From IMG/VR virus record IMGVR_UViG_3300032093_008018, positions 18,559-82,558 of that record: 64,000 nt of DNA, one strand, 5' to 3'. Each line of letters begins with the position of its first letter. Position 1 is the stretch's first letter. The translations under genes and the position numbers were made by a program. Source of the stretch: a virus. Taxonomy: Duplodnaviria; Heunggongvirae; Uroviricota; Caudoviricetes. The notes beneath the pieces were generated by a model. That model did no database searches and was not told the DNA's origin. It saw only the letters and a list, made by a program, of their open reading frames with translations. Below, piece by piece: positions 96-60,658 of the stretch.

Positions 96-1394
96 TTGTT
101 CAATAAAACATTTTGTCCATTACCATGGATCCATTTAGCTACTAGACCTAACGGCGATGTCCGTTTATGTTGCACTGCTAACGCATCTGGTGCGGGTACC
201 GCAGACAAAGAATCAGGCCTTGTTAAAGATAATGGCGTAAACATGAACTTACAATCACACTCAATTGAGCAAGTGTGGAACAGCAGTTTTATGAAGCAGA
301 CACGGCTACAAATGCTTAATGGAGAACAACCATACAGTTGTACCAAATGTTATCAAGAAGAACTCAACGGTATTGTTAGTAAACGCCAATGGGAAACTGT
401 TGTGTGGAAAGAACGATTAAACCTTGATGCCGTTGTGTCTAGAACAACCCTCGACGGAACTTTGCCTGTAGACATTCCTTACTTTGATTTACGCCTGGGG
501 AATATGTGCCAGTTAAAGTGTATTATGTGTAGTCCACACGATTCAAGTAGTTGGATTAAAGAATGGAAAGCACAGTATCCAAAATACAAAACAATAGAAC
601 TTAAACAAGATCAAGGATGGAACATTGACTTTGACTACACTTGGTATCAAAAAGGTGAATTCTTATCAAGTTTAAGAACGCAATCACACAATATCAAAGA
701 GTTGTACTTTGCAGGTGGTGAACCGTTGCTTATACCAGAACACTATAAAATATTAGAGTTTATGGTTGAAACAGGTAATGCTAAGAACTGTGTACTACGT
801 TATAACAGCAACGGCATGGAACTGCCGGAGAAGTTATTTGAGTTGTGGAATTATTTTAAGCAGGTTAAATTTAACTTTAGTGTAGATGCTTTTGGCCAAC
901 GTAACGATTATATTCGTTATCCTAGTAAATGGAATAATGTTGTTACTAACTTAGAAAGATTAGACGACACACCCGATAACATTATTATTAATATTGCTTG
1001 TGCTGTACAGTTGCTTAACGTATCAAGCATACCAGAATTAGCCAATTGGAAGATTAGCAAGAACTTTAAAAAGATTAATTTGCCACCGCATGGCGCTGGC
1101 ATTATTGGAACACACTTAGTCTACTTGCCCGATTACTTAAATGTACGTGTTCTACCAAAAGAAATTAAAGATCAAGTAGCAAAACGCATTGAATATTTTT
1201 GTGCTAAACATATGGGCTACAAAGACTTTGCTACAGACCCATATGGTGCTCAACGTTGGATGGGATTAATCAAATACATGAATTCAGCAGACTGGACTGA
1301 TAAAATTCCTACACTACTAGATTATTTAGAAACCACAGATACACAGCGTGGAACTAATTATCGAGATGTATTTCCAGAGTTGAGCGTTTTGTAA
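96..1394 (+). CDS. Radical SAM enzyme with N-terminal Cys-rich SPASM/twitch-like module (TTG start; true start may differ)
   Basis: CxxxCxxC motif 'CQLKCIMC'. N-terminal 'FCPLPW...NGDVRLCC...NGEQPYSCTKC' resembles a SPASM-domain opening. Paralog of 3794..5056. Confidence 0.7.
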   Translation: MFNKTFCPLPWIHLATRPNGDVRLCCTANASGAGTADKESGLVKDNGVNMNLQSHSIEQVWNSSFMKQTRLQMLNGEQPYSCTKCYQEELNGIVSKRQWETVVWKERLNLDAVVSRTTLDGTLPVDIPYFDLRLGNMCQLKCIMCSPHDSSSWIKEWKAQYPKYKTIELKQDQGWNIDFDYTWYQKGEFLSSLRTQSHNIKELYFAGGEPLLIPEHYKILEFMVETGNAKNCVLRYNSNGMELPEKLFELWNYFKQVKFNFSVDAFGQRNDYIRYPSKWNNVVTNLERLDDTPDNIIINIACAVQLLNVSSIPELANWKISKNFKKINLPPHGAGIIGTHLVYLPDYLNVRVLPKEIKDQVAKRIEYFCAKHMGYKDFATDPYGAQRWMGLIKYMNSADWTDKIPTLLDYLETTDTQRGTNYRDVFPELSVL

Positions 1395-2221
1395 TAACGG
1401 CTGTTTCTAAAACGTTCAAACCAAGATGGTTTAAATCTTACAACAGGTGTTTTAAATCCTAGTTGGTTAAGCCAAACATTAATAGCCGCAAGTTGTTCGT
1501 CAGTTGCGGCATAGCGTACATATCTGTGGAACCCCATAACTTTAACGTAATCTGTATTATAGGTATCTTGTAAAACAGTTTCGTTAACTGTTTCTCCCCT
1601 CCAAAATATTCTAGCAAATTTACGAGGAACAAATGACTCGTCAACTAGATGATTAGCAAGATATGAATACAATACTAGTTCACCACACTTACCTTTTAAA
1701 TACCAGCTACAAAACTTTTCAATATCACCTAAACTTTTAACTAGTTCAGTACGCCATACAAACGGACATTCTGACGCAAACTGTTTTTCTCTTACAGGGT
1801 CTACATTAAAGTATTCAGCAAATCGTTTAATAACTGGTTCCCAGTTAGAATCATAAGCGATCCAACCGCAACCTAGTACACCTGCCCAGTCAGTCGTACT
1901 GCAAGGTTTAACAAAAAAGTCTTTAGGGTCTAAACATAAAAACTCTTCGTCTTTTATATAGTTGACCATTTTAAGTTTATAAACTTGGTGGCGCTCAAAT
2001 CCATCAGGGACATGCAAGTATTCGTACCATTTAGGAAATAATAAAACAAGTTTATGTTTTGTGTAGTATGGCTCTAACATGTCCTTCCAGCGTTGCTTAT
2101 CTGGAAAACGTTCGTTAATAGTAACCCAATGTGTACATGGCTGTAGAAACTTACTGATGCTTTCGGCCTGTAGTCGCATTACATCAAAATCTTGCTCACA
2201 CGCAATAGTTACTAAATCCAT
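1358..2221 (-). CDS. Hypothetical protein (start moved to internal Met 'MDLVTIACEQ' to remove a 150-nt overlap)
   Basis: Long ORF. The internal ATG at 2221 lies 1 nt from the upstream gene's stop. No recognisable motif. Confidence 0.45.
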   Translation of the reverse strand: MDLVTIACEQDFDVMRLQAESISKFLQPCTHWVTINERFPDKQRWKDMLEPYYTKHKLVLLFPKWYEYLHVPDGFERHQVYKLKMVNYIKDEEFLCLDPKDFFVKPCSTTDWAGVLGCGWIAYDSNWEPVIKRFAEYFNVDPVREKQFASECPFVWRTELVKSLGDIEKFCSWYLKGKCGELVLYSYLANHLVDESFVPRKFARIFWRGETVNETVLQDTYNTDYVKVMGFHRYVRYAATDEQLAAINVWLNQLGFKTPVVRFKPSWFERFRNSRYYKTLNSGNTSR

Positions 2222-2222
2222 C

Positions 2223-2909
2223 TTATATCCTATGGTAGTATTGGTAAAATGCTTCTGCGTATTCACAACGTGCTTCGATACCCCGGTATTTTGCCCAATC
2301 AAGCATGCCTTTACTAGACAAGTAGTTGTCTTGTGGACGCACTTGCGATTTAAAAATTTTAGCAAATGAATCAATTTTTTCTTGTACTACTTGCTCAGTT
2401 AATTCTACATATACATTCGGAGTGTCATAATCTGTTTTATATAACTTATGCACATACGTTGGGTTTTCCAGTATGTACATAGTCTTAGGACAGTAGTTAA
2501 ACGTTGGACGAGTTGCCGCTATCACTGCTTCATAGACAGTAGTGTGATCAATGTGAAAACTAGGACCCATGGTCATAATGATATCTGGCGTAATTTCCAT
2601 AATGGCATTTTCTACTAATTTGACTAGTTTAGAACGAGGAAACAAATCTAACTTGGAATCAAAGTCTAATGGCAATTGAAACTCGCCAGTTGTGGGACGT
2701 ACCCATGTACCATTAGCCCATTTAACAAATTGTTGATACTCTGCTAGACGTTCTTCTCTAGTTACAGTTTTGTGATGTAGTTCTATATCCGAAGCCGCAA
2801 CTAAACAAAAGTAAAAATCATACTGATCTCGATTCTTTAAAAAGAATCCACCGGCACCTATATAACTGTCATCACTATGCGGCTCAATTATTAGAACTTT
2901 TTGTTTCAT
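2223..2909 (-). CDS. PIG-L/LmbE family N-deacetylase
   Basis: N-terminal 'EPHSDDSYIGAGG' matches the (A)HPDDE..G.GG motif. A later 'HIDH' HxDH motif is also present. Confidence 0.65.
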   Translation of the reverse strand: MKQKVLIIEPHSDDSYIGAGGFFLKNRDQYDFYFCLVAASDIELHHKTVTREERLAEYQQFVKWANGTWVRPTTGEFQLPLDFDSKLDLFPRSKLVKLVENAIMEITPDIIMTMGPSFHIDHTTVYEAVIAATRPTFNYCPKTMYILENPTYVHKLYKTDYDTPNVYVELTEQVVQEKIDSFAKIFKSQVRPQDNYLSSKGMLDWAKYRGIEARCEYAEAFYQYYHRI

Positions 2910-3801
2910 TTTTATTCTCTTTAGTTAGCGGAATGTCTGCGGCACATGTACACCAGTCTCTAGTGCAATCAACAGGTTGATTGGGTACAGTAAAGGTGTC
3001 TTGATAGATATTACCTAAACTTCCACCAACACGGCAGGTAGCACGATGTACTTCTCCATCCCAATTGATCATGAGACTTTCGAGACCTGCATTACATTGC
3101 CATCCTTTGAATTGATTTAGATGTTGTTTGATTACATCGTTGGCATGAATGATCTGTTCATCGTCTATGCGGCAATTGGGTTTAGCTGTGGCATTCTTGT
3201 TTAATATCCACTCAAGATCTTGACCTTCGTATCTAAGATCATCAAACACATTGTGATCTCCTTCTGTCCAACGGATACGCCGTACAGCATATCTAATACC
3301 TAGTTCATCAAACTTTTTAACCACTGTACGAACACCGTGCATGTGTTTATAGTGTGCCATTACATTAACATGAAAGTCACGCTCAGTACTGTCATAAAAT
3401 TTCATTATATTATCAAATATTCTCATCCATTCCTGTTCAAAGTGCAGACTGAACACGATGTGATTATAAAACATTTCATGATTTAAATACCATTGATATC
3501 CTCTAGTTCCATTGGTAGTTAAGTTTACCCAAAAAATATCTTTACGTTTGAAATATTCTAATAAGTCTTCTATATCTGGATGCACACAGGGTTCCCCTCC
3601 CGTGAGGCTAATACGCAAAGGTTTACCTATTTCGCAGAGTCTATCTACGGCTCGTTCTAATAAATTTATATCCGTATGCGGACTAAAGTTATCATGTATC
3701 TCTGCAGGGCAATATGAGCAATCGTAGTTACAGCGTTTACCAAGATTCCACTCGATCTTGATTTGATCTTGATGTGGCCATACTGAGGTTATTTTATACA
3801 T
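2884..3801 (-). CDS. Radical SAM enzyme with C-terminal Cys-rich auxiliary (twitch/SPASM-like) region
   Basis: 'CNYDCSYC' CxxxCxxC near the N-terminus. C-terminal 'CTRDWCTC' cysteines. Confidence 0.75.
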   Translation of the reverse strand: MYKITSVWPHQDQIKIEWNLGKRCNYDCSYCPAEIHDNFSPHTDINLLERAVDRLCEIGKPLRISLTGGEPCVHPDIEDLLEYFKRKDIFWVNLTTNGTRGYQWYLNHEMFYNHIVFSLHFEQEWMRIFDNIMKFYDSTERDFHVNVMAHYKHMHGVRTVVKKFDELGIRYAVRRIRWTEGDHNVFDDLRYEGQDLEWILNKNATAKPNCRIDDEQIIHANDVIKQHLNQFKGWQCNAGLESLMINWDGEVHRATCRVGGSLGNIYQDTFTVPNQPVDCTRDWCTCAADIPLTKENKNETKSSNN

Positions 3802-5056
3802 AGGCAGTAAATTCCGGAGTCACTTCTTCAAATCGTTGTTCTCTTGTGACATCAAGTCTATGATTAAATTCTACGCAGTCTTTCCACAGATGGCTTTCGT
3901 CTTTAGAATTAAGAAAATTGATAACACCTTGTATTTGTCCCATAGTTAAATTATAAAGCATTGGATGTTCTTTTATTAATTTAAATTTTTCAATCCGAGG
4001 TTTAACATTTTCTAATCTTTCTATAGCTTGAGTTTTTAGTTCTGGAGGAAGTGTTTGAATAGATAGAACTTTAGGATACTTTACCATATTGGTATAGAAT
4101 ACGATTCCTAAATCATTTAAAAAGTATTCTATCATTTCATCCAGTATTAATACATTACTAATCTGTACAGCTACAGCGCCTACTATTCTACTGACATTAG
4201 GAATAGTCTGTATCTGTTTAATATTGTTAATTAATTCTGACCAACTTGCGTTTCCACGAATGTACTCATAACTTGAACCAATACCATCAATAGAAACATT
4301 TACAGCTACACTTTTAAATTTAGGCCAATATTCCCAAATAGTGCGATTGCTTTTACCTAAAATATTCAGGTTAGTGGCATACTTAATTTCTATTTGATTT
4401 CCGTAAGGAGCTAGCATATCTAGTATGCGATAATGCTGTGGATCCATTAGTGGTTCACCACCAGCAAATTCTACTCGTCTAAAGTAAGGAAGTAATTTTT
4501 TAAAAGAATTCCACCAGTTAGGATTATCCTCAAATTTATCCAAGTAGGGTTTGTTTATAAGATTAAGTTTTCTTACATTTTTAGAAATAAAATTTCCTTC
4601 TTTGTCGTAAAATTCCTCAACCTGTTTCCAATCATTCCAACTAGTGCTATCTGTAGGGTTGCACATTCGACATTTTAAATTGCAAAGATTATTCAATTTA
4701 ATCTCTATTGTTGGAATTTCGAAAGGCATTGTAAAATCTTGATCCATTTTCTTTAATGAATTAGGATAAAGATTAATACGTGCTTCTGGAATTTCTCCTT
4801 TAATGTGTCGCTGTCTTAAACTTTCAACCCCTTGATCTTCTAAACTAAAACAAGGTTCACACTCCGGAGGACGTTCTCCGTTTAAAACTTGTTTACGAAT
4901 GCGTCTCATAGTATCATTATTCCAATGATCTTCTAAAGAAGCATCTTGTATAAATCCAATAGGATAACTGCGACAACAAACTTTAATTGCGCCGTCTTCA
5001 CGTGTTGCTAATCCTGTAAAAGGATGCATACAAAATGTATTATGATTATAGTTCAT
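3794..5056 (-). CDS. Radical SAM enzyme, paralog of 96..1394
   Basis: 'CNLKCRMC' CxxxCxxC. Shares the N-terminal 'FCMHPF...GAIKVCC...NGERPPECEPC' module with ORF 96..1394. Confidence 0.75.
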   Translation of the reverse strand: MNYNHNTFCMHPFTGLATREDGAIKVCCRSYPIGFIQDASLEDHWNNDTMRRIRKQVLNGERPPECEPCFSLEDQGVESLRQRHIKGEIPEARINLYPNSLKKMDQDFTMPFEIPTIEIKLNNLCNLKCRMCNPTDSTSWNDWKQVEEFYDKEGNFISKNVRKLNLINKPYLDKFEDNPNWWNSFKKLLPYFRRVEFAGGEPLMDPQHYRILDMLAPYGNQIEIKYATNLNILGKSNRTIWEYWPKFKSVAVNVSIDGIGSSYEYIRGNASWSELINNIKQIQTIPNVSRIVGAVAVQISNVLILDEMIEYFLNDLGIVFYTNMVKYPKVLSIQTLPPELKTQAIERLENVKPRIEKFKLIKEHPMLYNLTMGQIQGVINFLNSKDESHLWKDCVEFNHRLDVTREQRFEEVTPEFTAYV

Positions 5057-5095
5057 GAACTATTTAACTGGGTTATAGTAGCATATAAATATTTC

Positions 5096-5761
5096 ATGTT
5101 AACAAAAACTAACTATCAAGTTTCTTTAGATTTAATCGAAATTGCATTGAAAGAAATTCCCAGTGATAACTTTAGATATACAATCAATCAACCAACAGAT
5201 TCTTTCTTTTATGATCCTTGGAAAATTAAAGAGGAATTTAAAAATACTATTTGGGAATCTATTTTAAAAACAATCAATGAACCGATCGGTGAAGCTAGGA
5301 TAATAATTTTAGAACCTGGTAAATGTTACCAGGGACACGCTGATATAGATGATCGGTATCATCTAAATTTATGTTCTGATGAATCGTTTTTGATAGATTT
5401 AGAAAACAACGTGTTGTATAAGTTAACAACAGACGGATTTTGGTACAACATGAATGCCGGGATTAGGCATACAGCGATGAATGTTGGACGAGTCACAAGA
5501 ATACAATTAGTTGTTAGACAGTTATTAAAAAACAATATTCTTAAAAACAGCGTTCCGGTATGCATTAAGTTTAATGATATTACTGACGAACATGCGAGGT
5601 TTATTTTTGATGAGAAATTAAGTCCGTTATTAAATCATTTTGATAAGAGTGGGCTTATAAATAAGTTTGAGTATGGGAAAACATTTGTTAAATTTAATAT
5701 CGAAAAAGAATCTAAAGACACACTTAATAAAATGCTTCCAGAAAACTTTGAATTATTATGA
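5096..5761 (+). CDS. Asp/Asn beta-hydroxylase-like Fe(II)/2OG cupin (start moved to 'MLTKTNYQ')
   Basis: HxD...H pattern 'GHADIDDRYHLNL...RHTAMNVGRVTRIQL' resembles the Asp_Arg_Hydrox family. Confidence 0.45.
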   Translation: MLTKTNYQVSLDLIEIALKEIPSDNFRYTINQPTDSFFYDPWKIKEEFKNTIWESILKTINEPIGEARIIILEPGKCYQGHADIDDRYHLNLCSDESFLIDLENNVLYKLTTDGFWYNMNAGIRHTAMNVGRVTRIQLVVRQLLKNNILKNSVPVCIKFNDITDEHARFIFDEKLSPLLNHFDKSGLINKFEYGKTFVKFNIEKESKDTLNKMLPENFELL

Positions 5762-6402
5762 TAATATACACTCCCATTGATATTAAATGTAAAATTCCTG
5801 ATCAAGATTTACTCATAGAATATGTTAAGAAGAATTATTTGGATAAAAATATTATACCTAATGCTTTATTATGTCCATTAGTTGTTAGAAAGGCAGTGAC
5901 CGATTGGAGAGATGCTTCTCAAATTTTTACAGAAGATAAACTTCAAGATCTCACCGATAACGATCCAACTTACTATCGACCCGGAATCAAAGAATTAATG
6001 CCAGAATTAATAGAAATTTTAGAATCTTTGCCATTTAAACAAATTATCGGGGGAGGCCTATATCTTCAAACAGGTCCGGTCGATGCTCATCATGATATAA
6101 CTATTGACTTCACATATCCTAAAAGTCCGGAAAGATATAATGTTTTATTAACTCCTCATTACGATCAAGATTCTTTTTATATTGCAAAAGAGATAACTGG
6201 GGAAAAAATATATCCTAAGATATTAAAAGATTACCCAATTTATGCATTTAATGATCAGAAGATGTTTCATGGAGCAGATCCTGTTTTAGAAAATAGAGTC
6301 ATTATGATCTGTGCAGGATTGATAGATCATGAAAAACATGAAAATCTTATAGAAAGAAGTGCAAATAAATTTAAAGAATATGTAATAAGATATGAGGATT
6401 AA
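5758..6402 (+). CDS. Putative cupin/2OG-oxygenase-like protein
   Basis: 'VDAHHDITI' and 'KMFHGADPVLENRVIM' resemble the facial-triad and Arg motifs of its neighbours. 4-nt overlap with the upstream gene. Confidence 0.35.
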   Translation: MIIYTPIDIKCKIPDQDLLIEYVKKNYLDKNIIPNALLCPLVVRKAVTDWRDASQIFTEDKLQDLTDNDPTYYRPGIKELMPELIEILESLPFKQIIGGGLYLQTGPVDAHHDITIDFTYPKSPERYNVLLTPHYDQDSFYIAKEITGEKIYPKILKDYPIYAFNDQKMFHGADPVLENRVIMICAGLIDHEKHENLIERSANKFKEYVIRYED

Positions 6403-6948
6403 ATGTCAATTAAGTTTATAGGTAATTTTTTTGCAGGAAAATGGGATAGTATAATTGACTCTTTATGTATTGAAGAAGGCGATCGGAGAGCGTTTGGTGT
6501 AGACTTTTATAAGAACTTTGATGGTCGATTTGACAATAACATCCAAATGTTGATTGATGCGGGCTATAATAAAGTTGACACTGTTGAGTGGTTTAATTAT
6601 TATCCTATAAAACATTTTGATAATTCGTGTGTTATAGAATTTGAAAAATTTGTTGGAATGAAATGTGCTAGAGCATGGATTAGTAAAATACGTCCAGGAA
6701 AATATGCTCCAATACATCAAGACATCGATGATAACATTGAAGAATATCTATCTCAGGGAGAAGTAATTCGGTTCAGTACTTTTATCAGTCACCCTTATCC
6801 GGGAGGAGTTTTTGTTTGTAAAAATCAATGTTTTCATTGCGAACTTTCTGGTAATACATATCAGTGGGATCATTACTTAGATTATCATGCAGGTGGTAAC
6901 TGCGGGCTCCATGATCAATTTATGTTTCATTTTTTAGGAATAAAGTGA
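6403..6948 (+). CDS. Cupin-like protein ('W..HxGG' family), paralog of 6945..7508 and 22703..23506
   Basis: 'PIHQDIDD' HxD. C-terminal 'YQWDHYLDYHAGGNCGLHDQFMFHFLG' is shared with its paralogs. Confidence 0.4.
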   Translation: MSIKFIGNFFAGKWDSIIDSLCIEEGDRRAFGVDFYKNFDGRFDNNIQMLIDAGYNKVDTVEWFNYYPIKHFDNSCVIEFEKFVGMKCARAWISKIRPGKYAPIHQDIDDNIEEYLSQGEVIRFSTFISHPYPGGVFVCKNQCFHCELSGNTYQWDHYLDYHAGGNCGLHDQFMFHFLGIK

Positions 6949-9805: not shown

Positions 9806-10029
9806 ATGCAGTGCCTTCTACTATTGTGCATCTTAGTCATATTTTTAATTACGATCCCGTAGCACCTTTTGTTCCATTAAGACACAGAATATATAATGAG
9901 AATCTATTGTTCAAAAAAATTAAAGAATATAATCCCAATGCCATTATTGTTACTGTAAATAAGGCATCGGAGATTTATAAAGATTCACTTCCTTCGTGGC
10001 ACATGGATGGAGAGTGGAATGATCTATGA
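9799..10029 (+). pseudogene. Truncated fragment of an AspH-like cupin (N-terminal half only)
   Basis: 'LPSWHMDGEWNDL*' matches 'WSNINWHTDGE' of 8236 ORF, then stops. Overlaps the start of the next complete AspH-like gene in another frame. Confidence 0.35.
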
Positions 10030-21912: not shown

Positions 21913-22150
21913 TCTTCAAGAAGAAATTTATAACATAATTGCAATGACAAACGAAATGGATACTCCGGCTGATATTATGTATAGCATTAGCAAATTTATA
22001 AAAAACATTGACCATGTAGATTATAAAGATTATTTAGAAAGTGATGAATTTAAACAATGGTTAGATAATAACGAAGAATTTATTAAATCTTGGAAAAATA
22101 TTAATACCTTTGTGTTAATGATGATAGAAAAAGAAAAAGACTATCTATAA
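21893..22150 (+). CDS. Hypothetical small acidic protein
   Basis: 85-aa ORF packed between its neighbours. Confidence 0.35.
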   Translation: MLILMNNLQEEIYNIIAMTNEMDTPADIMYSISKFIKNIDHVDYKDYLESDEFKQWLDNNEEFIKSWKNINTFVLMMIEKEKDYL

Positions 22151-23506: not shown

Positions 23507-23514
23507 TATTTTTC

Positions 23515-24219
23515 TTGATAATTAAATGTATGGATTATGAATATTATTACAACAATGTTCCTGGAGTTGGTTTAACAAGGAACAACCTTATTTACACCAG
23601 CTTGATCAGTCGTGATAAAAAAACTTTTGTCCAATGGTATCATAATGATAGTGAATATCATAAAGGGAATAATGAAGTTGTTGATTCGAATCTGATGAAT
23701 GCTAAGTGGAATCGTGAAGTAAAATATCTTATAGAAATGGCCCGGAAGTATGAAGATAAAGTTCCAAAAATATTAGAAATAAATCATAAAGAACAAAAAA
23801 TTTATTTGTCTATAGATGGTTTAGACTTTTGGAATCGTGCAGGATGTGTTACTGAAAATTATGATAAAGTATTACCAGATTGGAAAGATCAGATGTGTAA
23901 AATTATCACAGCCCACAAAAGTTTAGGATTACACAAATATAGTATGCATCCCAGCAGTTATTTTGTTGTTAACGGTCAGCTTAAAAGCATTAATTATTTT
24001 TTTACATATCATGAAGAAGAACCTAATATTAGCATTAAAGATGTTGAAAGTCACATCCACTCTAATAGACAAGCAGAAATGCGTAAGCATTTAAAAACAC
24101 TGAACATCGAATGGCATACACCGCAACCTTGGAAAATAATGGACCAATTATGTTGGGAGAGTTTTAGAACAAACTATCCTCAAGATTTTATAGAAAGTGT
24201 AAAAGAATGTATAAAATAG
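23515..24219 (+). CDS. Hypothetical protein, paralog of 22141..22716
   Basis: Shared motif with 22141 ORF. Divergently arranged. Confidence 0.4.
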   Translation: MIIKCMDYEYYYNNVPGVGLTRNNLIYTSLISRDKKTFVQWYHNDSEYHKGNNEVVDSNLMNAKWNREVKYLIEMARKYEDKVPKILEINHKEQKIYLSIDGLDFWNRAGCVTENYDKVLPDWKDQMCKIITAHKSLGLHKYSMHPSSYFVVNGQLKSINYFFTYHEEEPNISIKDVESHIHSNRQAEMRKHLKTLNIEWHTPQPWKIMDQLCWESFRTNYPQDFIESVKECIK

Positions 24220-24752
24220 TTCCATGGTCGGAAGATTTAGATCTTACTGAATTTTATGCCGAGGCAAAATCTAGAGGTTTCGTAAATAACTCAAGTCAAG
24301 CAGCAATGATCGATTGTTTTAAAAATGAAGTACGTTGGAACATCTGGATATTATATTATAATGACCACCCTGTTGGATCTGTGGCGGCACATACTTTAGA
24401 CGATCTTGGATATAGGATTTGTGCTAGAACATGTGTATTAACCAATCACTTACCTAAAATAACTTTAAGAACAATTAATCAAATTAAAAATCATCAACAT
24501 ATTACTGCACAGTTTTTTATGCCCACTTGTATTGAATGGGTAGGCAATCATGATATGTATATTACTAGTCACGAAAGCGAAGTTGGCACACAAAGATTAG
24601 TTCATACAATATGGGGGCCCACATTAGAATCTACAGGAGTGCTGACCAGAGCGTTTGATCATAATTATAGAGGTCATAAACAAACGTTCTGGAAACTTAA
24701 TAAAAATATATTTTTAGATCAATTATCAAAGGTAGATAGATGGACACAATAA
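24207..24752 (+). CDS. Hypothetical protein
   Basis: 181-aa ORF. No motif recognised. Confidence 0.4.
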   Translation: MYKIVPWSEDLDLTEFYAEAKSRGFVNNSSQAAMIDCFKNEVRWNIWILYYNDHPVGSVAAHTLDDLGYRICARTCVLTNHLPKITLRTINQIKNHQHITAQFFMPTCIEWVGNHDMYITSHESEVGTQRLVHTIWGPTLESTGVLTRAFDHNYRGHKQTFWKLNKNIFLDQLSKVDRWTQ

Positions 24753-25819
24753 GTTTATGCGAACATTGTTATAGACACGTTTCTGCTAAAAAGTTTATAC
24801 GAGATGGTAGCGTGTGGATGAGTAAAGAGTGTCCGGAGCACGGTTATAGTGAATATATGATAGAACGCGATTCAGACTTTTATAAGAGTTTAGAATTTGA
24901 TCCGTACGGATACGATGTGCCCAGTGGTATTATGATTGAAGTTACAGATCGCTGTAATTTAAAATGCCCGCACTGTTATCATGAACCAGAAAATGCAACA
25001 ACAGACAAACCCTTAGGATTAATACTTCAACAAATTGAAAGTTGGCCTGAAGATGCTGGTAGCGTTATCCTTGCAGGTGCTGAACCTACACTACGTAAAG
25101 ACTTACCTGAACTAATTAGAAACATCAGACATGTACAAACTCGCCTAGGCAGAACACACCAGGATATTACAATTTTAACTAATGGTGTTAAGCTCGCTGA
25201 TAAGCAGTGGACTGAAGAAATAGCCAAGGCTGGATGTCGTGCTGTGATGGTAGGACTTAACCATCATTCGTACCAAGGTGATACTGTACATCAAAAACAG
25301 TTACAAGGTATTGAGAATTGTAAGGCTGCTGGCATTGTTGTTTACTACGTAGGTTATACATTAGAAAACTTAAATCACATTCCAGAAGTACTAGAAGAAA
25401 TACAAAAACTAGGAAATAATGCCTTACAGTATCGTGTACGTGCTGGCAGCGACATTGGTCGCAACCCGGATGAACCTCGTTATTATCTTAGTGACCATGT
25501 AAAAGCAATTAAGGACTATGTAGACAGCAAAGGATGGACATGGGAAAAGATACCTGCAGATGATAATCTGTATCATTATATGGTTAAGATTAACGGTATC
25601 ACACATAGATTAATACAATGGAGCGATCCTAAAACCATTGATATGGAAGAGCTACGATGTGGTCCGTGGTGTGACTTTGTACCTAATAAACCTATTAGTA
25701 ATTTTCTACATCAAATCATGCTACGTGACGCGGCTGTAAACAAGAATATGATATTATATGACACCGTTCCGGAACGTTATAGATTTCGTAGCAGAGAGGA
25801 TATGAGGATAGATCCCTAA
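24740..25819 (+). CDS. Radical SAM enzyme with N-terminal Cys/His zinc-ribbon-like segment
   Basis: 'TDRCNLKCPHC' CxxxCxxC. N-terminal 'CEHCYRH...ECPEHG'. Confidence 0.75.
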   Translation: MDTISLCEHCYRHVSAKKFIRDGSVWMSKECPEHGYSEYMIERDSDFYKSLEFDPYGYDVPSGIMIEVTDRCNLKCPHCYHEPENATTDKPLGLILQQIESWPEDAGSVILAGAEPTLRKDLPELIRNIRHVQTRLGRTHQDITILTNGVKLADKQWTEEIAKAGCRAVMVGLNHHSYQGDTVHQKQLQGIENCKAAGIVVYYVGYTLENLNHIPEVLEEIQKLGNNALQYRVRAGSDIGRNPDEPRYYLSDHVKAIKDYVDSKGWTWEKIPADDNLYHYMVKINGITHRLIQWSDPKTIDMEELRCGPWCDFVPNKPISNFLHQIMLRDAAVNKNMILYDTVPERYRFRSREDMRIDP

Positions 25820-26169
25820 GCCTGTCTTTCTACAAAGTTTAATTTGATGCTGGTTGGATTAAAAAATTCTTTAACAGTAGCAATAACTATTTCTGCTTTA
25901 AATTCTTTACAGCTAAACAAATCAATATAAGCATCAGCAGTCTTGTTTACAAAATGACAATTTATATTACTTGTAGTAATCATTTGTAATACACTATATC
26001 CTTCATTGTCTGTTCCTGGTAATAAATTTTCAATGATCATTTTTCCGTGCGCTTCCATTTCAACACGTTTTATTAATGTATATACAAATGCCCATATGTG
26101 ATCTTTATCTTTAATTTTTTTTAAATCACAACCGGCACAATCTAACATAATATGATAACCCCAAGACAT
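25816..26169 (-). CDS. S-adenosylmethionine decarboxylase (SpeH/class 1b) fold protein, divergent
   Basis: 'GYHIMLDCAGCD' matches 'HxxxDxYGCD'. 'ITTSNINCHF...YIDLFSCK' aligns with 'SESHISIHTWPE...AIDLFTCG' but has TSN in place of ESH. Confidence 0.45.
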   Translation of the reverse strand: MSWGYHIMLDCAGCDLKKIKDKDHIWAFVYTLIKRVEMEAHGKMIIENLLPGTDNEGYSVLQMITTSNINCHFVNKTADAYIDLFSCKEFKAEIVIATVKEFFNPTSIKLNFVERQA

Positions 26170-26855
26170 TATAACTCCTCAAGAATTAATCTAGCCAAAT
26201 TATTATGTGCTTCTTGATCGTAATGATAAAATGGTAATTTTTTATACATTTTGAATTCACACCAATTTACATAATTCTCACAACTTTCAAAATTAAAAAC
26301 ATTATCTACCTTTGGTATAATTTCTGGAAACAACGGTAAATGTAAAAAATCAGTAGCCCATCCTGTACATAAATTATCTACTATAAACATTAATTCATTT
26401 AAATTATTATAAGGACGAAGCATTTCATTAACAAACAGATCGTTAATTGGATGAATCATGGTTCCATCAACCTTACCTTTCCATTGCATACCAACTTGTA
26501 TGAATTTATCTTTATCTCTACCTAAGAAATTGCCAACGTCTGGATAGTAAAATTCTGTTCTATCTGTACATGTATACCCAAACAATACTAAACTATTTGG
26601 ATGTTCTTGTAATGCGTTGACTAATAATCTTAGACTACGAGCATTACTTCCGCCAGTCATTGCATAATTATAACAAGGAATATTTAATTTATCAGCAACC
26701 ACTTGAGGAAAGGCTAATTTTTTTCCAGAATCATCTGCTTGTTCTATTGTTATTTTACCTCTGGTATAATCTTCAAAAGTATATTGATTTGATAATTCAC
26801 ATCCAGCAACATGACTATCTCCAAATGCTAGAACTGAATTAAATTTTTTTACCAT
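26169..26855 (-). CDS. Putative SGNH/GDSL-like hydrolase
   Basis: N-terminal 'VLAFGDSHVAG'. Weak evidence. Confidence 0.35.
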   Translation of the reverse strand: MVKKFNSVLAFGDSHVAGCELSNQYTFEDYTRGKITIEQADDSGKKLAFPQVVADKLNIPCYNYAMTGGSNARSLRLLVNALQEHPNSLVLFGYTCTDRTEFYYPDVGNFLGRDKDKFIQVGMQWKGKVDGTMIHPINDLFVNEMLRPYNNLNELMFIVDNLCTGWATDFLHLPLFPEIIPKVDNVFNFESCENYVNWCEFKMYKKLPFYHYDQEAHNNLARLILEEL

Positions 26856-26878: not shown

Positions 26879-28489
26879 ATGTTTAATGTCATACTATTTA
26901 CCGATGCTCCCTATCCTCATCATAAAATTAGAGGTTATGGTGTGCATAGAATTGCTAGTCAAATTAGAACAAATGGTTACTCTTGTCTTGTCATTGATTT
27001 TAGTTCGGCACTAACATTTGATAGATATAAAGAAATTATTGATAATTCAGTGGGACCAGAAACTCTTATGGTTGGTTTTAGTACAACTTGGTTACCTTAT
27101 AGATGGCCGGAAAAACCAGGAGAATTTACCAATCAGATTCCCGGACACCATATTGGGGAACAACATGAATTAAGTCATTTAAAGTCAGAGATGCACGATT
27201 GGAGAAAAGATAATTTAGTGGTTAAATTTGGAAAGAATGAAGTTGAAGAATGGTTGTTATATCCTAAAACAATTAATTCAAAATTAAAAATTGTATTAGG
27301 TGGTGCAAAAGCAGATTTTTATATGGATCTAAAAAATATAGATCATGTTATTTTTGGAATTGCCGAAACTGAAACTATTGATTTATTAGATCGACTATCG
27401 GGAAAAACAAAACGCATATTTGGAAAATATATCGATCACGATAGAAAAGCTCATGCTCCTACATGGGATTTTAGAGAAAGTAGCACACAATACACAGAAT
27501 ATGATTTTATACAACCTCAAGAAACTCTTAACTTAGAAGTAGGTCGCGGATGTAGATTTAAATGTTCGTTCTGCAACTTTCCTCTTATTGGTCAAAAAAA
27601 TGTCAATGATTATTTAAAATATCCAACTATTATTCGTGACGAGTTGTTAAAAAATTACGAACTTTGGGGTACTACTAAGTATTTTATTGTGGATGATACA
27701 TTTAATGACAGCACTGAAAAATTAGAAATGTTGGCCAAGGTAATGAGCGACTTGCCTTTTAAAATTAAATTTTGGTGTTATACCCGAGTTGATCTATTAG
27801 CCGCACATCCCGAACAGATGGAACTGTTAAAAGAAATAGGCATAGCAGAAACATTTTTTGGTCTTGAAACTTTTAATGACAAGAGCTCAAAAACTATTGG
27901 TAAGGGAATGCCATCAAGTCGCCGTAAGGATACTTTATATAGAGCAAAAGAAGTGTGGGGTGATCGAGTATGGTTAGAAGGGGGTTTTATGATTGGCCTT
28001 CCTCACGAAACCCAGGCTAGTTGGAGAGAAACCGTTGATTGGTTAAAGCGTAGAGATTGTCCGCTAGATATTTCGACAGTATATCCTCTCAATATAATTA
28101 AAAAAACCGATAGAAATAAATGGTTCCCTACTAGTTGGTTTGACGAAAACTACGAAAAGTTTGGATATCAATTTCCTAAGGACGGAGTAGACGGAATGTT
28201 ATATTGGGAGAAAGATGATACCGATATTAAAAATTTTTATCAAGCACAAGAAATAGCCGACATTACCACTAAAGAATTAGCATCATATCAAAGAATACGT
28301 CAGGGAGATTTTTATGTTAGTTCTTTCAATCATCCAATACTTGGAAATAGAGAGTTTACTATCGATATGCCAAAGATAGAATATAATAATTTAATAAATT
28401 CTATAGACTTTAATCAACTGTTTTATGATCATACCAATAAAGAATATTTTCAACCGTTGTTAAACTATCTTAAAAATAAAAATGTTTGA
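26879..28489 (+). CDS. B12-binding (class B) radical SAM enzyme, tandem duplicate 1
   Basis: 'VGRGCRFKCSFC'. N-terminus near-identical in pattern to 28482 ORF ('MFNVILFTDAPY...GYGVHRIASQIR'). Confidence 0.8.
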   Translation: MFNVILFTDAPYPHHKIRGYGVHRIASQIRTNGYSCLVIDFSSALTFDRYKEIIDNSVGPETLMVGFSTTWLPYRWPEKPGEFTNQIPGHHIGEQHELSHLKSEMHDWRKDNLVVKFGKNEVEEWLLYPKTINSKLKIVLGGAKADFYMDLKNIDHVIFGIAETETIDLLDRLSGKTKRIFGKYIDHDRKAHAPTWDFRESSTQYTEYDFIQPQETLNLEVGRGCRFKCSFCNFPLIGQKNVNDYLKYPTIIRDELLKNYELWGTTKYFIVDDTFNDSTEKLEMLAKVMSDLPFKIKFWCYTRVDLLAAHPEQMELLKEIGIAETFFGLETFNDKSSKTIGKGMPSSRRKDTLYRAKEVWGDRVWLEGGFMIGLPHETQASWRETVDWLKRRDCPLDISTVYPLNIIKKTDRNKWFPTSWFDENYEKFGYQFPKDGVDGMLYWEKDDTDIKNFYQAQEIADITTKELASYQRIRQGDFYVSSFNHPILGNREFTIDMPKIEYNNLINSIDFNQLFYDHTNKEYFQPLLNYLKNKNV

Positions 28490-30038
28490 TGTTATTCTTT
28501 TTACTGACACTGTAGAATTTAATATTAAATCTAGAGGTTATGGTGTACACAGATTAGCCAGTCATATACGCAATTATGGTTATAGCTGTTTAGTAATTAA
28601 TTTTAGCTCTCTTGTTACTTGGGAAATATACACTGAAATATTAGATAAAGCAATTGGACCAAACACATTACTAGTTGGCTATAGTACAACATGGATGCCT
28701 TTTAAGTTTCCTGATATTGGTGTTAGAACCAGTAATCCGGGAGAAGGAACAGGAACAGATAAAGAACGATTTGAGATTCCAAGTTTAGTTACTGAGTTTG
28801 CTCGAGATAATTATAAACCCTGGATCGATTATGTCAAACAATGTAATTTAAAAACAAAAACAATGTTGGGTGGTGCAAGGATTGATTTTTATCTTAATGC
28901 TCCTACAGATTATGTTATAGTCGGATTAGGAGAAACTGAAACTATTGATTTGTTAGATTCTCTGTCGGGAAAAACAAAAAGGATATTTAATAGAATTATA
29001 GATCATGATCGTAAGGCGCACAATCCAACATGGGATTTTAAATTAAGTACTACTTCATATACGTCCTGGGATTTAATACAACCTCAAGAAACTTTAAATT
29101 TAGAAGTCAGCAGAGGTTGTAAATTTAAATGTGCCTATTGCTCGTATCCTTTGATAGGACAGAAAACAGTCAACTATCTTAAACAAGCTGATGTTATACG
29201 TAGAGAACTCTTAGAAAATTATGAACAATGGGGAACAACAAAATATTTTATTGTTGATGATACGTTTAATGATAGTACAGAAAAGATGCAGATGTTTGCA
29301 GATGTTAGTCAGAGTTTGCCTTTTGAATTAAAATTTTGGTGTTATCTAAGAGCAGATTTATTAGCGGCACACCCAGAGCAAATACAATTACTAAAAGATG
29401 CCGGTATAGCAGAAACTTACTTTGGTCTAGAAACATTTAATCCAAAAACTGCAAAGTTTATTGGTAAGGGGATGGCTAGTGAAAGATTAATAGATACTAT
29501 CTATCAGTGTAAAGAAATTTGGGGAGATCGAAGTTACATTGCTTCGGGGATTATTATAGGTTTACCTTACGAAAGTACAGATACAATTTATAAGGCTGTT
29601 GAATTTTTTAAAAGAAAAGATTGCCCAATAGATTTAGCTAACACATTTCCTTTAAGTATTATTGGTAATCACAATATTATGAAATACATGTATATGAGTG
29701 AAATTGATCGCAATTATTCAAAGTATGGTTATTATTTTCCTAATCCCGATATAAATTTCTTTAGTTGGAGAAAAGATGATGATACTGATATAAACAGCTA
29801 CGAACAGGCCGAATTACTTTCGCAAGAATTAAATTCTACATTGAAGAATAAGCCGTATCGAGGAGATTTTTATATTAGTAGTTTTAATGATAGTAGACTA
29901 AGCAATAGAGAAAAAAATTTAGATTTAACAGATAAAGAATATCAAAATTTAATTAAGTCTATTAATTTTACAGAAATGTTTAAAGAAACAATAATAAGAG
30001 ATTATTTTAAACCTCTTATCCTAAAGTTATCCAACTAG
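28482..30038 (+). CDS. B12-binding (class B) radical SAM enzyme, tandem duplicate 2
   Basis: 'VSRGCKFKCAYC'. N-terminus 'MFDVILFTDTVE...GYGVHRLASHIR'. 8-nt overlap with copy 1. Confidence 0.8.
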   Translation: MFDVILFTDTVEFNIKSRGYGVHRLASHIRNYGYSCLVINFSSLVTWEIYTEILDKAIGPNTLLVGYSTTWMPFKFPDIGVRTSNPGEGTGTDKERFEIPSLVTEFARDNYKPWIDYVKQCNLKTKTMLGGARIDFYLNAPTDYVIVGLGETETIDLLDSLSGKTKRIFNRIIDHDRKAHNPTWDFKLSTTSYTSWDLIQPQETLNLEVSRGCKFKCAYCSYPLIGQKTVNYLKQADVIRRELLENYEQWGTTKYFIVDDTFNDSTEKMQMFADVSQSLPFELKFWCYLRADLLAAHPEQIQLLKDAGIAETYFGLETFNPKTAKFIGKGMASERLIDTIYQCKEIWGDRSYIASGIIIGLPYESTDTIYKAVEFFKRKDCPIDLANTFPLSIIGNHNIMKYMYMSEIDRNYSKYGYYFPNPDINFFSWRKDDDTDINSYEQAELLSQELNSTLKNKPYRGDFYISSFNDSRLSNREKNLDLTDKEYQNLIKSINFTEMFKETIIRDYFKPLILKLSN

Positions 30039-60648: not shown

Positions 60649-60658
60649 TGGGTACTGC

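Follow-up and report, generated by a model that had tools for sequence, protein, structure and literature searches.

At the left of the 64,000-nucleotide stretch that was analysed (hereafter the window) lies a 32-kb block encoding some 35 enzymes, which belongs to an uncultured, widespread freshwater giant (jumbo) phage and not to a cellular biosynthetic gene cluster. This setting is established by an identical locus in IMG/VR (L023), by relatives on scaffolds of 378,878 and 372,995 bp, by flanking genes for a Gad2 anti-defence homologue, IF-1, S21, ClpP, ho1/bilin reductase, PstS, Hsp20 and RNR, and by the lack of tRNA genes and Rfam matches throughout the 64-kb window. An earlier note had placed the island at positions 96-30038, of which the left limit had to be moved: the block continues for about 2.1 kb beyond the window edge with two further radical SAM (rSAM) genes, encoding 351 and 328 aa. 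Base 1 maps within the 351-aa gene, a paralogue of 17085-18146 of which only the 3′ end (1-105, + strand) falls inside the window; the 328-aa gene lies further left. The PF04055 matches of the pair fall in 13696-15730 of locus L013. Together with the nine inside the window, this gives 11 rSAM genes in about 32 kb, alongside approximately ten iron oxygenases, at least two glycosyltransferases and several amino-group enzymes. This density of enzyme families is unusual and, in line with the note, the complete island corresponds to no characterised pathway.

The island has a coding density of 98.6%, nine strand switches and a GC content of 0.329, versus 0.373 in the remainder of the window. None of its proteins contains a transmembrane-like segment. 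Two secreted, Ser/Thr/Asn-rich phage proteins are encoded 14 kb away, and a ‘tail-fibre-like’ ORF near the island has no detectable homologue among GenBank phages.

Nine ORFs score above the Pfam threshold for PF04055 and contain exactly one CxxxCxxC motif each, in agreement with the rSAM count given previously; the extra Cys-containing modules reported for five of them were also recovered. The product of 96-1394 (+) combines PF04055 with PF13186 and matches the NCBIfam model for rSAM proteins with an N-terminal twitch/SPASM domain (N_Twi_rSAM, NF033640) with 418.7 bits, the cutoff being 170 bits; it has 4186 homologues at E ≤ 1e-10. A second N_Twi protein, encoded by 3794-5056 (−), scores 342 bits and is a paralogue of the first (E = 4e-49). 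The rSAM protein of 24740-25819 (+) carries an N-terminal Zn-ribbon (PF23545) and partially matches TrsS and Tes, while C-terminal Cys-rich clusters, read directly from the translations, mark 2884-3801 (−; rSAM motif CNYDCSYC) and 17085-18146 (+). The family of the latter is common to Campylobacter phage CP220 (gp083, E = 9e-20) and 14 Bdellovibrionota loci.

The remaining four had been described as B12-binding class B enzymes. This is borne out for 20119-21912 (+), in which PF02310 passes its threshold (34.9 versus 32.1 bits) and a partial match to NF033712 (177 bits) points to a C-methyltransferase of the KedN5-like type. For 11559-13046 (+) the PF02310 match is sub-threshold (20.4 bits), and partial matches to TIGR04072 and PhpK are consistent with a class-B-like enzyme. 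No PF02310 match was found in the tandem genes 26879-28489 and 28482-30038 (both +), which match B12-rSAM NCBIfam models (TIGR04072, PhpK, HpnJ) only partially; they are paralogous to each other (E = 1e-187) and to 11559-13046 (E = 1e-47 to 1e-53). Homologues of the 20119 protein (45% identity) in other phages are found in an operon with the order GT1, rSAM, DegT aminotransferase, NDP-sugar 4,6-dehydratase-type SDR and, last, a DUF6492 protein. Such homologues also move without the remaining island.

An HxD...H iron-binding triad is conserved in ten island proteins, matching the earlier estimate of about ten AspH-like or 2OG cupins in number, with family assignments of differing strength. PF05118 is passed by two AspH-like hydroxylases, 8236-8709 (+, 51.2 bits) and 10007-10552 (+, 77.5 bits), and PF13759 (2OG-FeII_Oxy_5) by 15876-16478 (+). 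Five small cupin-type Fe(II) oxygenase candidates lie in tandem at 5024-8074 (+; ORFs starting at 5024, 5758, 6403, 6945 and 7496); PF05118 is sub-threshold in the first (5024-5761), and hhalign weakly links 5024, 6403 and 6945 to the AspH-like family (62-66% probability). The family-conserved triad is the basis of the oxygenase call for 5758, 6403, 6945, 7496, 15226-15858 (−) and 22703-23506 (−). In the last, HRD...H is invariant; this protein is the most conserved of the island, with 77-90% identity in relatives. It is encoded between two protein-kinase-like paralogues, 22141-22716 (−) and 23515-24219 (+), which align to each other with 100% hhalign probability and find Bud32 and Ser/Thr kinases in profile searches against the PDB (E = 6e-4).

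Profile searches also upheld the class III PLP aminotransferase (14045-15229, −; PF00202, 138.9 bits), the class I SAM methyltransferase (16463-17101, +; Methyltransf_25/31/12/11), the pyruvoyl-type AdoMetDC-fold protein (25816-26169, −; PF02675, 64.7 bits) and the PIG-L/LmbE-type de-N-acetylase (2223-2909, −; PF02585, 34.1 versus 28.2 bits), the last in a variable cassette missing from several relatives. The amidinotransferase (13043-14083, +) was recovered by a phmmer search of the PDB, with HsvA (3e-21) ahead of StrB1 (2e-19), SxtG and AGAT; its catalytic Cys motif GIHCLTLD aligns with SFHCATLD, and it shares 28% identity with CP220 gp086. The proposed SDR and two SGNH hydrolases keep motif-level or sub-threshold support: 10536-11153 (+) has an N-terminal TGxxxGIG-type motif with sub-threshold Epimerase and adh_short matches, 18133-18885 (+) an N-terminal GDS motif and no profile match, and 26169-26855 (−) a sub-threshold Lipase_GDSL match (E = 0.033). 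Three further ORFs encode a 139-aa protein (11143-11562, +), a small acidic protein of 81-85 aa that is called in all copies and matches no family (21893-22150, +), and a 181-aa protein with a non-significant GNAT hint (24207-24752, +; E = 0.22).

The statement that the island lacks a glycosyltransferase did not hold. The product of 18873-20126 (+) has a GT-B fold; this gene is variable and has only seven homologues, and therefore lies outside the conserved core. A two-domain protein at 8696-10030 (+) joins an N-terminal GT-A/nucleotide-diphospho-sugar-transferase fold to a C-terminal class-I methyltransferase-like fold. Its ORF (8696-9805) is shortened by a 1-bp deletion that causes a frameshift near 9800, the intact protein having 444 aa, and for its N-terminal domain a nucleotidyltransferase function is as plausible as a glycosyltransferase one. 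In eight of 13 long representatives, 8696-like proteins are fused to an 8236-type AspH-like domain (four N-terminally, four C-terminally), and such a fusion also occurs in locus L078. Because this fusion recurs elsewhere, the 8236 hydroxylase is probably functionally coupled to the adjoining 8696 protein. A third possible transferase, the DUF6492-like protein of 1358-2221 (−), lies in a variable cassette and scores 17.2 bits, sub-threshold, with PF20102; its homologue in locus L009 passes this model (29.1 bits) and sits in an NDP-sugar operon.

Over 20 viral contigs retain the gene order at 50-90% amino-acid identity and carry every ORF in intact form. Gain or loss among relatives affects the PIG-L/DUF6492 cassette, the AdoMetDC-fold gene, which is absent in close relatives, and the 18873/20119 pair; lineages also differ by inversion or rearrangement of the complete block with respect to its flank. 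Outside phages, the N_Twi rSAM family forms tandem arrays of up to seven copies in Bdellovibrionota (predatory Bdellovibrio-like bacteria). Six island families (N_Twi, 17085-type and 2884-type rSAM, AspH-like, 8696-like and amidinotransferase) occur together again in chromosomes of this phylum that differ in GC content (0.42-0.50), and three of the six are co-located in CP220. The Bdellovibrionota arrays neighbour two GT2 families (10 and 5 loci), a NodU-type carbamoyltransferase, DegT, a GDP-mannose-dehydratase-like SDR, a PfkB kinase, an Asn-synthase-type amidotransferase and MFS transporters. In cyanophage S-SCSM2R, the amidinotransferase adjoins KdsA/KdsB, glycosyltransferases and 2OG oxygenases. 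The nearest precedents, both themselves uncharacterised, are the rSAM-plus-amidinotransferase modules of Campylobacter phages CP220/CPt10 (PMC2853527) and the tandem dioxygenase arrays of cyanophages such as Syn9 (PMC2938197).

Our preferred explanation, held tentatively and at somewhat less than even probability, is that the island specifies a pathway of soluble, cytoplasmic enzymes for the assembly and very heavy tailoring of a sugar- or aminosugar-type moiety, which is attached to a cytoplasmic acceptor in the infected cell. We infer that the genes form one pathway, as their conserved order and the recurrence of six families in Bdellovibrionota and three in CP220 argue for one functional unit. 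Sugar chemistry is suggested by the GT-A fold of the 8696 protein, the 20119 operon, the Bdellovibrionota neighbours and the S-SCSM2R amidinotransferase setting, and a cytoplasmic location by the lack of membrane segments. The fusions of 8236-type with 8696-type domains also speak for this reading. All substrates assigned to the island enzymes are putative. The acceptor, we speculate, is most likely a phage-encoded protein, virion or secreted; if so, cassette turnover across lineages would diversify a surface or recognition structure.

The sugar would be installed by two or three transferases, namely the GT-B protein 18873, the GT-A/methyltransferase-like 8696 and possibly the DUF6492-like 1358, with the AspH-like 8236 making or preparing the site for its partner 8696. 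Oxygen-independent oxidation, epimerisation or C-C chemistry may be the task of the twitch/SPASM-type rSAM enzymes, C-methylation at unactivated carbons that of the four B12-type enzymes, and hydroxylation that of the cupin oxygenases. Amino groups would be exposed by the PIG-L deacetylase, introduced by the class III aminotransferase and guanidinylated by the amidinotransferase, and the methyltransferase, SGNH-like and kinase-like proteins might finish the decoration.

Several observations count against a sugar product. No enzyme of activated-sugar synthesis was found in the island, which has no clear nucleotidyltransferase, 4,6-dehydratase or DegT-type aminotransferase. About 21 redox enzymes stand against two or three transferases, far more tailoring than any known glycan pathway shows. 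The GT-B gene lies outside the core, and the best-conserved block, 22141-25819 (kinase-like, oxygenase, 181-aa and Zn-ribbon rSAM proteins), is unconnected with sugar chemistry. AspH-family enzymes of known substrate act on proteins and lipids, not on sugars. The nine strand switches and the cassette turnover also suit a set of independent functions.

AspH enzymes are known above all as protein hydroxylases, which favours a direct modification of side chains in a phage protein or peptide, similar to RiPPs/proteusins or to methyl-coenzyme-M reductase. AspH-like and other cupins would hydroxylate, B12-rSAM enzymes C-methylate and SPASM/twitch enzymes epimerise or cross-link residues; transferases would finally add sugars at the hydroxylated positions, in the manner of collagen lysyl hydroxylase-glycosyltransferases. 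LH3 and Mimivirus L230 are bifunctional enzymes of this kind, and the hydroxylase-GT-A fusion resembles them. Iyer et al. (PMC2938197) proposed that beta-hydroxylase clusters of phages and bacteria act on tail-collar and collagen-like proteins. The two secreted Ser/Thr/Asn-rich proteins might serve likewise, and weak, partial matches of the rSAM enzymes to NCBIfam models for peptide maturases and RiPP C-methyltransferases point the same way. Nevertheless, we regard this explanation as unlikely: every peptide-maturase match lies far under its cutoff, the PIG-L, aminotransferase, amidinotransferase and SDR families are small-molecule or sugar enzymes, and the 20119 subfamily is housed in NDP-sugar operons. 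No precursor-like small ORF, leader-peptide family or RiPP recognition element was found in or beside the island, as the earlier note had observed for precursors. Of the two settings it had offered, the proteusin/RiPP one thus gains no support, whereas the aminosugar/aminocyclitol-like one is favoured by the two GT folds, the KedN5-like rSAM in an NDP-sugar operon and the GT2, carbamoyltransferase and DegT neighbours in Bdellovibrionota.

A diffusible small molecule (aminoglycoside/aminocyclitol-like, polyamine-derived or guanidinylated), which the phage would use during infection to poison competitors, as a signal or as a cofactor, is likewise improbable. The family set overlaps that of aminoglycoside pathways (twitch rSAM, B12-rSAM C-methylases, PIG-L, aminotransferase, StrB1-like amidinotransferase), the amidinotransferase finds its best PDB match in the polyamine amidinotransferase HsvA, an AdoMetDC-fold enzyme is present, MFS transporters and carbamoyltransferases adjoin the Bdellovibrionota arrays, and similar S-SCSM2R genes are annotated as ‘antibiotic synthesis genes’ (PMC12801897). 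However, Pfam scans of all island ORFs found no scaffold-forming enzyme (inosose/inositol-phosphate synthase, PKS, NRPS or terpene cyclase), the island holds no exporter, self-resistance gene or any membrane protein, and close relatives dispense with the AdoMetDC-fold gene.

The island might also yield no single product, being a hyperplastic ‘parking lot’ in which this phage lineage gathers unrelated auxiliary enzymes, each working on host metabolites by itself. In cyanophages, genes for AdoMetDC homologues and 2OG oxygenases commonly stand alone. The strand switches, the gain and loss of cassettes, the rearrangement relative to the flank, the lower GC content and the separate occurrence of 20119 homologues all agree with this idea. 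Against it stand the joint recurrence of at least six families in distant genomes (Bdellovibrionota and, partly, CP220), the fusion of domains encoded by adjacent genes and an order conserved over 50-90% amino-acid divergence, and we give it little credence relative to a glycan-tailoring pathway.

Jumbo phages often modify their own DNA, and in 2013 Iyer and colleagues reportedly described kinase-like proteins and carbamoyltransferases in predicted DNA hypermodification systems. Yet hypermodification of phage DNA against host nucleases is very unlikely in spite of the uniformly soluble island proteins. In such a scheme, bases hydroxylated by the oxygenases would receive sugars from the transferases, in the manner of base J and T4 glucosyl-hmC, and the other island enzymes would elaborate the sugar. 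Against it, the 64-kb window has no match to TET/JBP, thymidylate-synthase-type hydroxymethylase, aGPT-Pplase, DpdA or DNA methyltransferase, the profile-matched oxygenases are of AspH and 2OG-FeII_Oxy_5 rather than nucleic-acid types, homologous arrays adjoin GT2 and MFS genes in the chromosomes of Bdellovibrionota, and the dADG modification of CP220 is accounted for by FolE, QueD, QueE, QueC and DpdA3, not by its rSAM module.

The block of enzyme genes under study (hereafter, the island) comprises 35 tightly packed ORFs between window positions 96 and 30038, arranged in nine strand blocks with a coding density of 98.6%. The genes that the earlier note placed in this interval are present, but its left boundary does not hold, as the window opens inside the island: a 137,979-bp contig from the same population carries two further radical SAM (rSAM) genes, encoding proteins of 351 and 328 amino acids, ahead of 96-1394, with a run of small ORFs after this pair. 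With these two genes, the island extends over approximately 32 kb and contains 11 rSAM genes. The GC content is 0.329 for window positions 1-30038 versus 0.373 for 30039-64000. No transmembrane-like segment was detected in any island protein. A 1-bp deletion near window position 9800 cuts the ORF 8696-9805 to 369 amino acids, compared with 444 on a JGI contig that is otherwise 99.9% identical; the deletion reflects either a mistake in the assembly or a true inactivating variant in the population.

The nine rSAM proteins previously read from their CxxxCxxC motifs were all recovered in the window by profile search, each ORF exceeding the Pfam PF04055 gathering score (32-70 bits versus a cutoff of 29.5) and containing exactly one such motif. 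Two of them, 96-1394 and 3794-5056, cover the NCBIfam model NF033640 ("twitch domain-containing radical SAM protein") from end to end, with 418.7 and 342.2 bits, respectively (cutoff 170); their SPASM/twitch module is N-terminal, and the family is referred to below as N_Twi. A PF23545 Zn-ribbon is found at the N-terminus of 24740-25819. Four B12-binding class B enzymes had also been proposed, of which 20119-21912 stands, as it contains a PF02310 B12-binding domain above threshold (34.9 bits versus 32.1) and partly matches the KedN5 family of cobalamin-dependent C-methyltransferases. For the other three, which are mutual paralogues with only partial matches to B12-rSAM NCBIfam models, PF02310 is sub-threshold in 11559-13046 (20.4 bits) and gave no match in 26879-28489 or 28482-30038 in the Pfam scan. 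Homologues of 20119-21912 with 45% identity occur in unrelated IMG/VR phages lacking the rest of the island, in an operon encoding a GT1 glycosyltransferase, an rSAM enzyme, a DegT/EryC1 sugar aminotransferase, an NDP-sugar 4,6-dehydratase-type SDR, and a DUF6492 protein homologous to window 1358-2221.

Support for the "about ten" hydroxylases claimed alongside these enzymes is graded. The Asp/Asn beta-hydroxylase profile PF05118 (cutoff 22.6 bits) is passed by 8236-8709 (51.2 bits) and 10007-10552 (77.5 bits), PF13759 identifies 15876-16478 as a 2OG-FeII_Oxy_5 protein, and 5024-5761 reaches a sub-threshold 17.2 bits with PF05118. This profile did not match the ORFs starting at 5758, 6403, 6945, 7496, 15226, or 22703. 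These six rest on a family-conserved HxD...H triad as candidate oxygenases; overall, nine ORFs contain an HxD/E...H facial triad that is retained, with at most one exception, among the 4-15 members of each family. Additionally, a weak profile-profile link connects 5024, 6403, and 6945 to AspH-like proteins.

Among the remaining enzymes, Pfam searches bore out the PIG-L deacetylase (2223-2909), the class III aminotransferase (14045-15229), the SAM methyltransferase (16463-17101), and the AdoMetDC-fold protein (25816-26169) exactly as first assigned. The amidinotransferase likewise proved correct, though its own profile is silent: 13043-14083 yields no PF02274 match at E ≤ 0.01, nor any other Pfam match, while phmmer against the PDB aligns it with five solved amidinotransferases (E 3e-21 to 4e-13), including HsvA (3e-21), StrB1 (2e-19), SxtG, and AGAT. 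Its C-terminal catalytic-Cys motif, GIHCLTLD, aligns with SFHCATLD of the solved enzymes. For the SDR and the two SGNH hydrolases, the backing consists of motifs or sub-threshold matches. The paralogues 22141-22716 and 23515-24219 match Bud32 and Ser/Thr kinases in profile searches, weakly but coherently.

No glycosyltransferase had been recognized in the island when it was first described. This no longer applies, given that the predicted structure of 18873-20126 contains two Rossmann-like domains superposing on solved GT-B enzymes, making the protein a putative GT-B glycosyltransferase. The 8696 protein is a candidate for a GT-A-fold glycosyltransferase or nucleotidyltransferase, a class defined here by a single Rossmann-like nucleotide-sugar-binding domain plus, for glycosyltransferases, a DxD motif. 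Its intact 444-residue form (8696-10030) was modeled with a pLDDT of 79, and the C-terminal domain of the model superposes on class I methyltransferases. The family counts 608 representatives in a library of 1.84 billion proteins. In 8 of the 13 longest members examined, an AspH-like domain of the 8236 type is fused to the 8696-type domain, N-terminally in four and C-terminally in four, and one such fusion is found in a locus from the Bdellovibrionota (L078). These fusions of what are neighboring genes in the island are strong evidence that 8236 and 8696 would act on the same substrate. PDB sequence and profile searches returned nothing significant for 22703, 1358, 24207, 18873, or 8696, and hhalign revealed no link between the DUF6492-like 1358 protein and the 8696 family.

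The island is widespread. At E ≤ 1e-10, the N_Twi protein 96-1394 has 4186 homologues, the best 120 of which are all at least 72% identical, and with more than 4000 metagenome relatives of a single island protein the phage group carrying it is abundant. The gene order of the island is retained on more than 20 IMG/VR contigs, with amino-acid identities of 50-90%. Relatives differ by cassettes: the DUF6492/PIG-L pair is swapped for extra rSAM genes, the AdoMetDC gene is variable, and the 18873/20119 pair is missing. The best-conserved block is 22141-25819, in which the 22703 protein (22703-23506) is 77-90% identical. In most relatives (L024, L026, L028, L029, L033, L040, L042, and L043), a flank encoding IF-1 and a metallophosphatase adjoins the first rSAM genes of the island, while in the window and in L021 it adjoins the last ones, indicating that the whole island has been inverted or rearranged between lineages.

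Numerous contigs from freshwater metagenomes encode identical island proteins, and IMG/VR contains the same locus (L023). Two island proteins have close homologues on scaffolds of 378,878 and 372,995 bp, amid small, phage-like genes; complete scaffolds of this kind include ENA ERZ19026195 GROS21-1 scaffold_28 (378,878 bp) and JGI 3300008111 Ga0114344_1000088. No capsid, portal, or terminase gene was found within the 85 kb reached around the window, and the window itself contains neither tRNA genes nor Rfam matches, rRNA included. We conclude, on indirect grounds, that the window is probably jumbo phage DNA, as supported by its IMG/VR membership, a Gad2 homologue, singleton IF-1 and S21 genes, the 373-379 kb scaffolds, and the lack of tRNA and rRNA genes. 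A cellular origin, raised by the presence of DnaK, GuaC, and PstS genes, was dropped in view of the IMG/VR matches, Gad2, and the genes carried by the 373-379 kb scaffolds.

Outside phages, an alignment of N_Twi proteins was used to scan one genome per prokaryotic species, yielding 80 loci that belong nearly all to the Bdellovibrionota, although this taxonomic skew may be partly technical, as the scan relies on two short peptide patterns. N_Twi genes of the Bdellovibrionota form tandem arrays with a mean of 2.7 and a maximum of 7 copies. Their neighbors include homologues of island proteins, namely two further rSAM families (the 17085 and 2884 types), AspH-like and 8696-type proteins, and an amidinotransferase. 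Other recurrent neighbors are two GT2 families, seen at 10 and 5 loci, along with a carbamoyltransferase of the NodU type, additional B12-rSAM enzymes, a DegT aminotransferase, a GDP-mannose-dehydratase-type SDR, a PfkB kinase, an Asn-synthase-type amidotransferase, and an MFS transporter. When the unplaced neighbor families were compared with the island families by hhalign, AspH, amidinotransferase, and SDR were the only links. The best of these loci, with a GC content of 0.42-0.50 versus 0.33 for the phage, are genuine bacterial DNA and not mis-binned phage. Seven N_Twi paralogues each are present in L072 (Bdellovibrionales), where they form a head-to-tail run, in L065 (labeled "bacterium"), and in L047, which lies on a 1.27-Mb contig and is labeled Candidatus Parcubacteria, an unusual combination for that group. 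In the cultured Bdellovibrio sp. HCB2-146, three N_Twi genes and an amidinotransferase gene are located at about 1.858-1.866 Mb of NZ_JBLEQP010000001.1.

Radical SAM enzymes are rare in phages, and 11 of them in one block beside ten O2-dependent oxygenases go beyond anything characterized. A close counterpart is found in the Campylobacter phages CP220 and CPt10, which contain 11-12 rSAM genes per genome and an "interchangeable module" of five rSAM genes and a glycine amidinotransferase (Timms et al. 2010, PMC2853527). As in the island, a compact rSAM and amidinotransferase module in a large lytic phage is exchanged between related phages. CP220 gp086 shares 28% identity with 13043-14083 across 93% of its length, the 17085-type rSAM family includes gp080, gp083, and gp084 (E 1e-12 to 1e-20), and the module is followed by two genes for GT-A-fold "nucleotide-diphospho-sugar transferases". 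On the other hand, CP220 lacks N_Twi rSAM, B12-rSAM, cupin oxygenase, PIG-L, aminotransferase, and GT-B genes; its module measures approximately 9 kb versus 32 kb for the island, and host and habitat differ. Moreover, the CP220 module is itself unexplained and thus supplies no mechanism for the island. That this module is a DNA-modification pathway was rejected, since other genes account for dADG in CP220.

A second counterpart is the T4-like cyanophage Syn9, with ten tandem 2OG/JmjC dioxygenases of unexplained role; such cyanophage arrays were described beside tryptophan-halogenase-type enzymes (Iyer et al. 2010, PMC2938197). Like the island, they represent a hyperplastic region of a large aquatic phage in which numerous small Fe(II)/2OG-type oxygenases have diverged from one another, and 2OG-FeII_Oxy_5 proteins occur in both. 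Unlike the island, they contain no radical SAM enzymes; conversely, the profile-matched oxygenases of the island are of the AspH type, one being coupled to a putative GT-A-fold protein, and Pfam scans of the island gave no match to a tryptophan-halogenase-type gene. In cyanophage S-SCSM2R, an amidinotransferase gene lies beside KdsA/KdsB, glycosyltransferase, and 2OG oxygenase genes. Virus-encoded glycosylation machinery, namely the chlorovirus and mimivirus glycan clusters and the Mimivirus L230 hydroxylase-glycosyltransferase, also ranks among the nearest systems. None of CP220/CPt10, Syn9, and S-SCSM2R unites rSAM batteries, oxygenase batteries, and transferases on the scale of the island, and in the literature we found no description of rSAM-rich phage islands or of N_Twi arrays in the Bdellovibrionota. 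We therefore regard the island as a new and greatly expanded form of a type of phage locus that is known but unexplained.

As to its product, our leading but tentative reading, which we hold to be somewhat short of probable, is a soluble pathway in which a sugar- or aminosugar-type moiety would be made, heavily tailored, and moved to a cytoplasmic acceptor. As acceptor, we prefer a phage protein over a free small molecule, and the latter over phage DNA. Where the substrate hydroxylated by an AspH enzyme is known, it is a protein or a lipid; collagen-like viral proteins are modified by pairs of a hydroxylase and a glycosyltransferase; and two secreted phage proteins located 14 kb from the island are extremely Ser/Thr- and N-x-S/T-rich; these three points favor a protein. 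Several features weaken the sugar reading: nucleotide-sugar synthesis genes are not recognizable, the GT-B gene is variable between relatives, redox enzymes outnumber transferases to an unprecedented degree, and the conserved kinase-like/oxygenase/rSAM core has yet to be linked to sugars. The block may not even constitute a single pathway. If it does, it would offer new enzymology for the N_Twi rSAM family, the 444-residue 8696 family with its 608 representatives, and the AspH-like partner of the latter, a novel mode of decoration by viruses of themselves or their hosts, and an initial clue to what the rSAM modules of Campylobacter phages and the cyanophage oxygenase arrays do. The Bdellovibrionota link provides culturable organisms for testing.

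A broader proposal, which we regard as rather unlikely, is that the island and the Bdellovibrionota arrays belong to an undescribed class of modification systems common to two bacterial predators, jumbo phages and Bdellovibrio-like bacteria. Batteries of N_Twi and B12 rSAM enzymes, together with pairs of an AspH-like hydroxylase and a GT-A-fold transferase, would build a hyper-tailored glycan or glycan-protein for prey or host recognition or evasion, diversified by cassette swaps.

Aminoglycoside/aminocyclitol and proteusin-type RiPP pathways were suggested in the earlier note as possible settings. The island is neither an antibiotic cluster nor a RiPP cluster of the cellular kind. For the aminoglycoside setting, the overlap in enzyme classes stands: the butirosin (BtrN), gentamicin (GenK/GenD1), and streptomycin (StrB1) pathways share with the island twitch rSAM enzymes, B12-rSAM C-methyltransferases, PIG-L-type deacetylases, aminotransferases, amidinotransferases (StrB1, E 2e-19), and glycosyltransferases. 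The island differs, however, in its N-terminal (permuted, NF033640) twitch, a class III instead of a DegT-type aminotransferase, ten O2-dependent oxygenases, and its location in a phage genome. Furthermore, Pfam scans detected no cyclitol-forming enzyme (2-deoxy-scyllo-inosose or inositol-phosphate synthase) in any island ORF, and the island contains no resistance gene, exporter, or other membrane protein. Proteusin pathways such as that of polytheonamide share B12-rSAM C-methyltransferases, other rSAM enzymes, and Fe/2OG hydroxylases, while the amino-group and sugar enzymes of the island have no counterpart there; no RiPP precursor peptide and no NHLP or Nif11 leader was found, and neither the only small ORF of the island (acidic, 81-85 residues) nor the left-hand small ORFs have leader-like or core-like features.

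Regarding DNA hypermodification, no entry enzyme (TET/JBP, dNMP hydroxymethylase, aGPT-Pplase, or DpdA) is encoded within the 64-kb window and 10 kb beyond. Genes for GTP cyclohydrolase I (12982-13740 of locus L009) and a QueD-like protein (3286-3891 of the CP220 locus) lie close to rSAM/sugar modules. These enzymes catalyze the first steps of 7-deazaguanine synthesis, and the genes probably represent a separate, neighboring DNA-modification pathway. For an O-antigen or capsule locus, Pfam matches to phosphoglycosyltransferase, Wzx/Wzy, ABC transporter, and nucleotide-sugar genes are lacking, as are transmembrane segments. Hopanoid side-chain tailoring, whose enzymes (HpnH/I/J/K/O/P/R) form a strikingly similar set of families, was rejected as a main reading, as no cyclase, lipid enzyme, or membrane protein is present; NCBIfam does give genuine matches to HpnJ, HpnR, and Tes, though these score far below cutoff.

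The flank encodes IF-1, ClpP, ClpS, Hsp20, DnaK, a Gad2 homologue, heme oxygenase and bilin reductase, GMP reductase, S21, PstS, a phosphate porin, ribonucleotide reductase, and, as a weak call, a tail-fibre-like protein. The Gad2 homologue (anti-Gabija; 38649-39359, minus strand; precomputed Pfam PF26128) backs the viral origin of the window. Host-like genes are densely grouped at 49304-52378 and 59194-61684 (both minus strand), comprising full-length DnaK, GuaC-type GMP reductase, PstS, and an OprO/P-type phosphate porin, with Hsp20, ClpS, ClpP, IF-1, and ribosomal protein S21 nearby; DnaK shares 69% identity with gamma-proteobacterial copies that occur in phage records. Neither megablast with 24 kb of flank nor tblastn against GenBank phages with three large flank proteins and the tail-fibre-like ORF identified a known phage relative. 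At 46930-48148 (minus strand), heme oxygenase (ho1) lies beside a ferredoxin-dependent bilin reductase, a pair typical of cyanophages, whereas the other host-derived genes look proteobacterial; a cyanobacterial host, suggested by this pair, is opposed by the proteobacterial-type DnaK, PstS, OprO/P, and GuaC.

Both secreted proteins, which are possible glycosylation acceptors and have no homologue in GenBank phages, are encoded on the minus strand. The larger (44013-45893, 626 amino acids) combines a signal peptide with a Ser/Thr-rich, mucin-like stretch and five tandem copies of a Cys motif of approximately 20 residues, QCSINALYDPTCPGYAQAYY. The smaller (45784-46614, 276 amino acids) also carries a signal peptide and, at its C-terminus, a hydrophobic anchor; it includes a low-complexity region extremely rich in Asn, Ser, and Thr and crowded with N-x-S/T. 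Immediately adjoining the island, 30983-31651 (minus strand) encodes a 222-residue protein that, judging from its HExxH motif, may be a metalloprotease.
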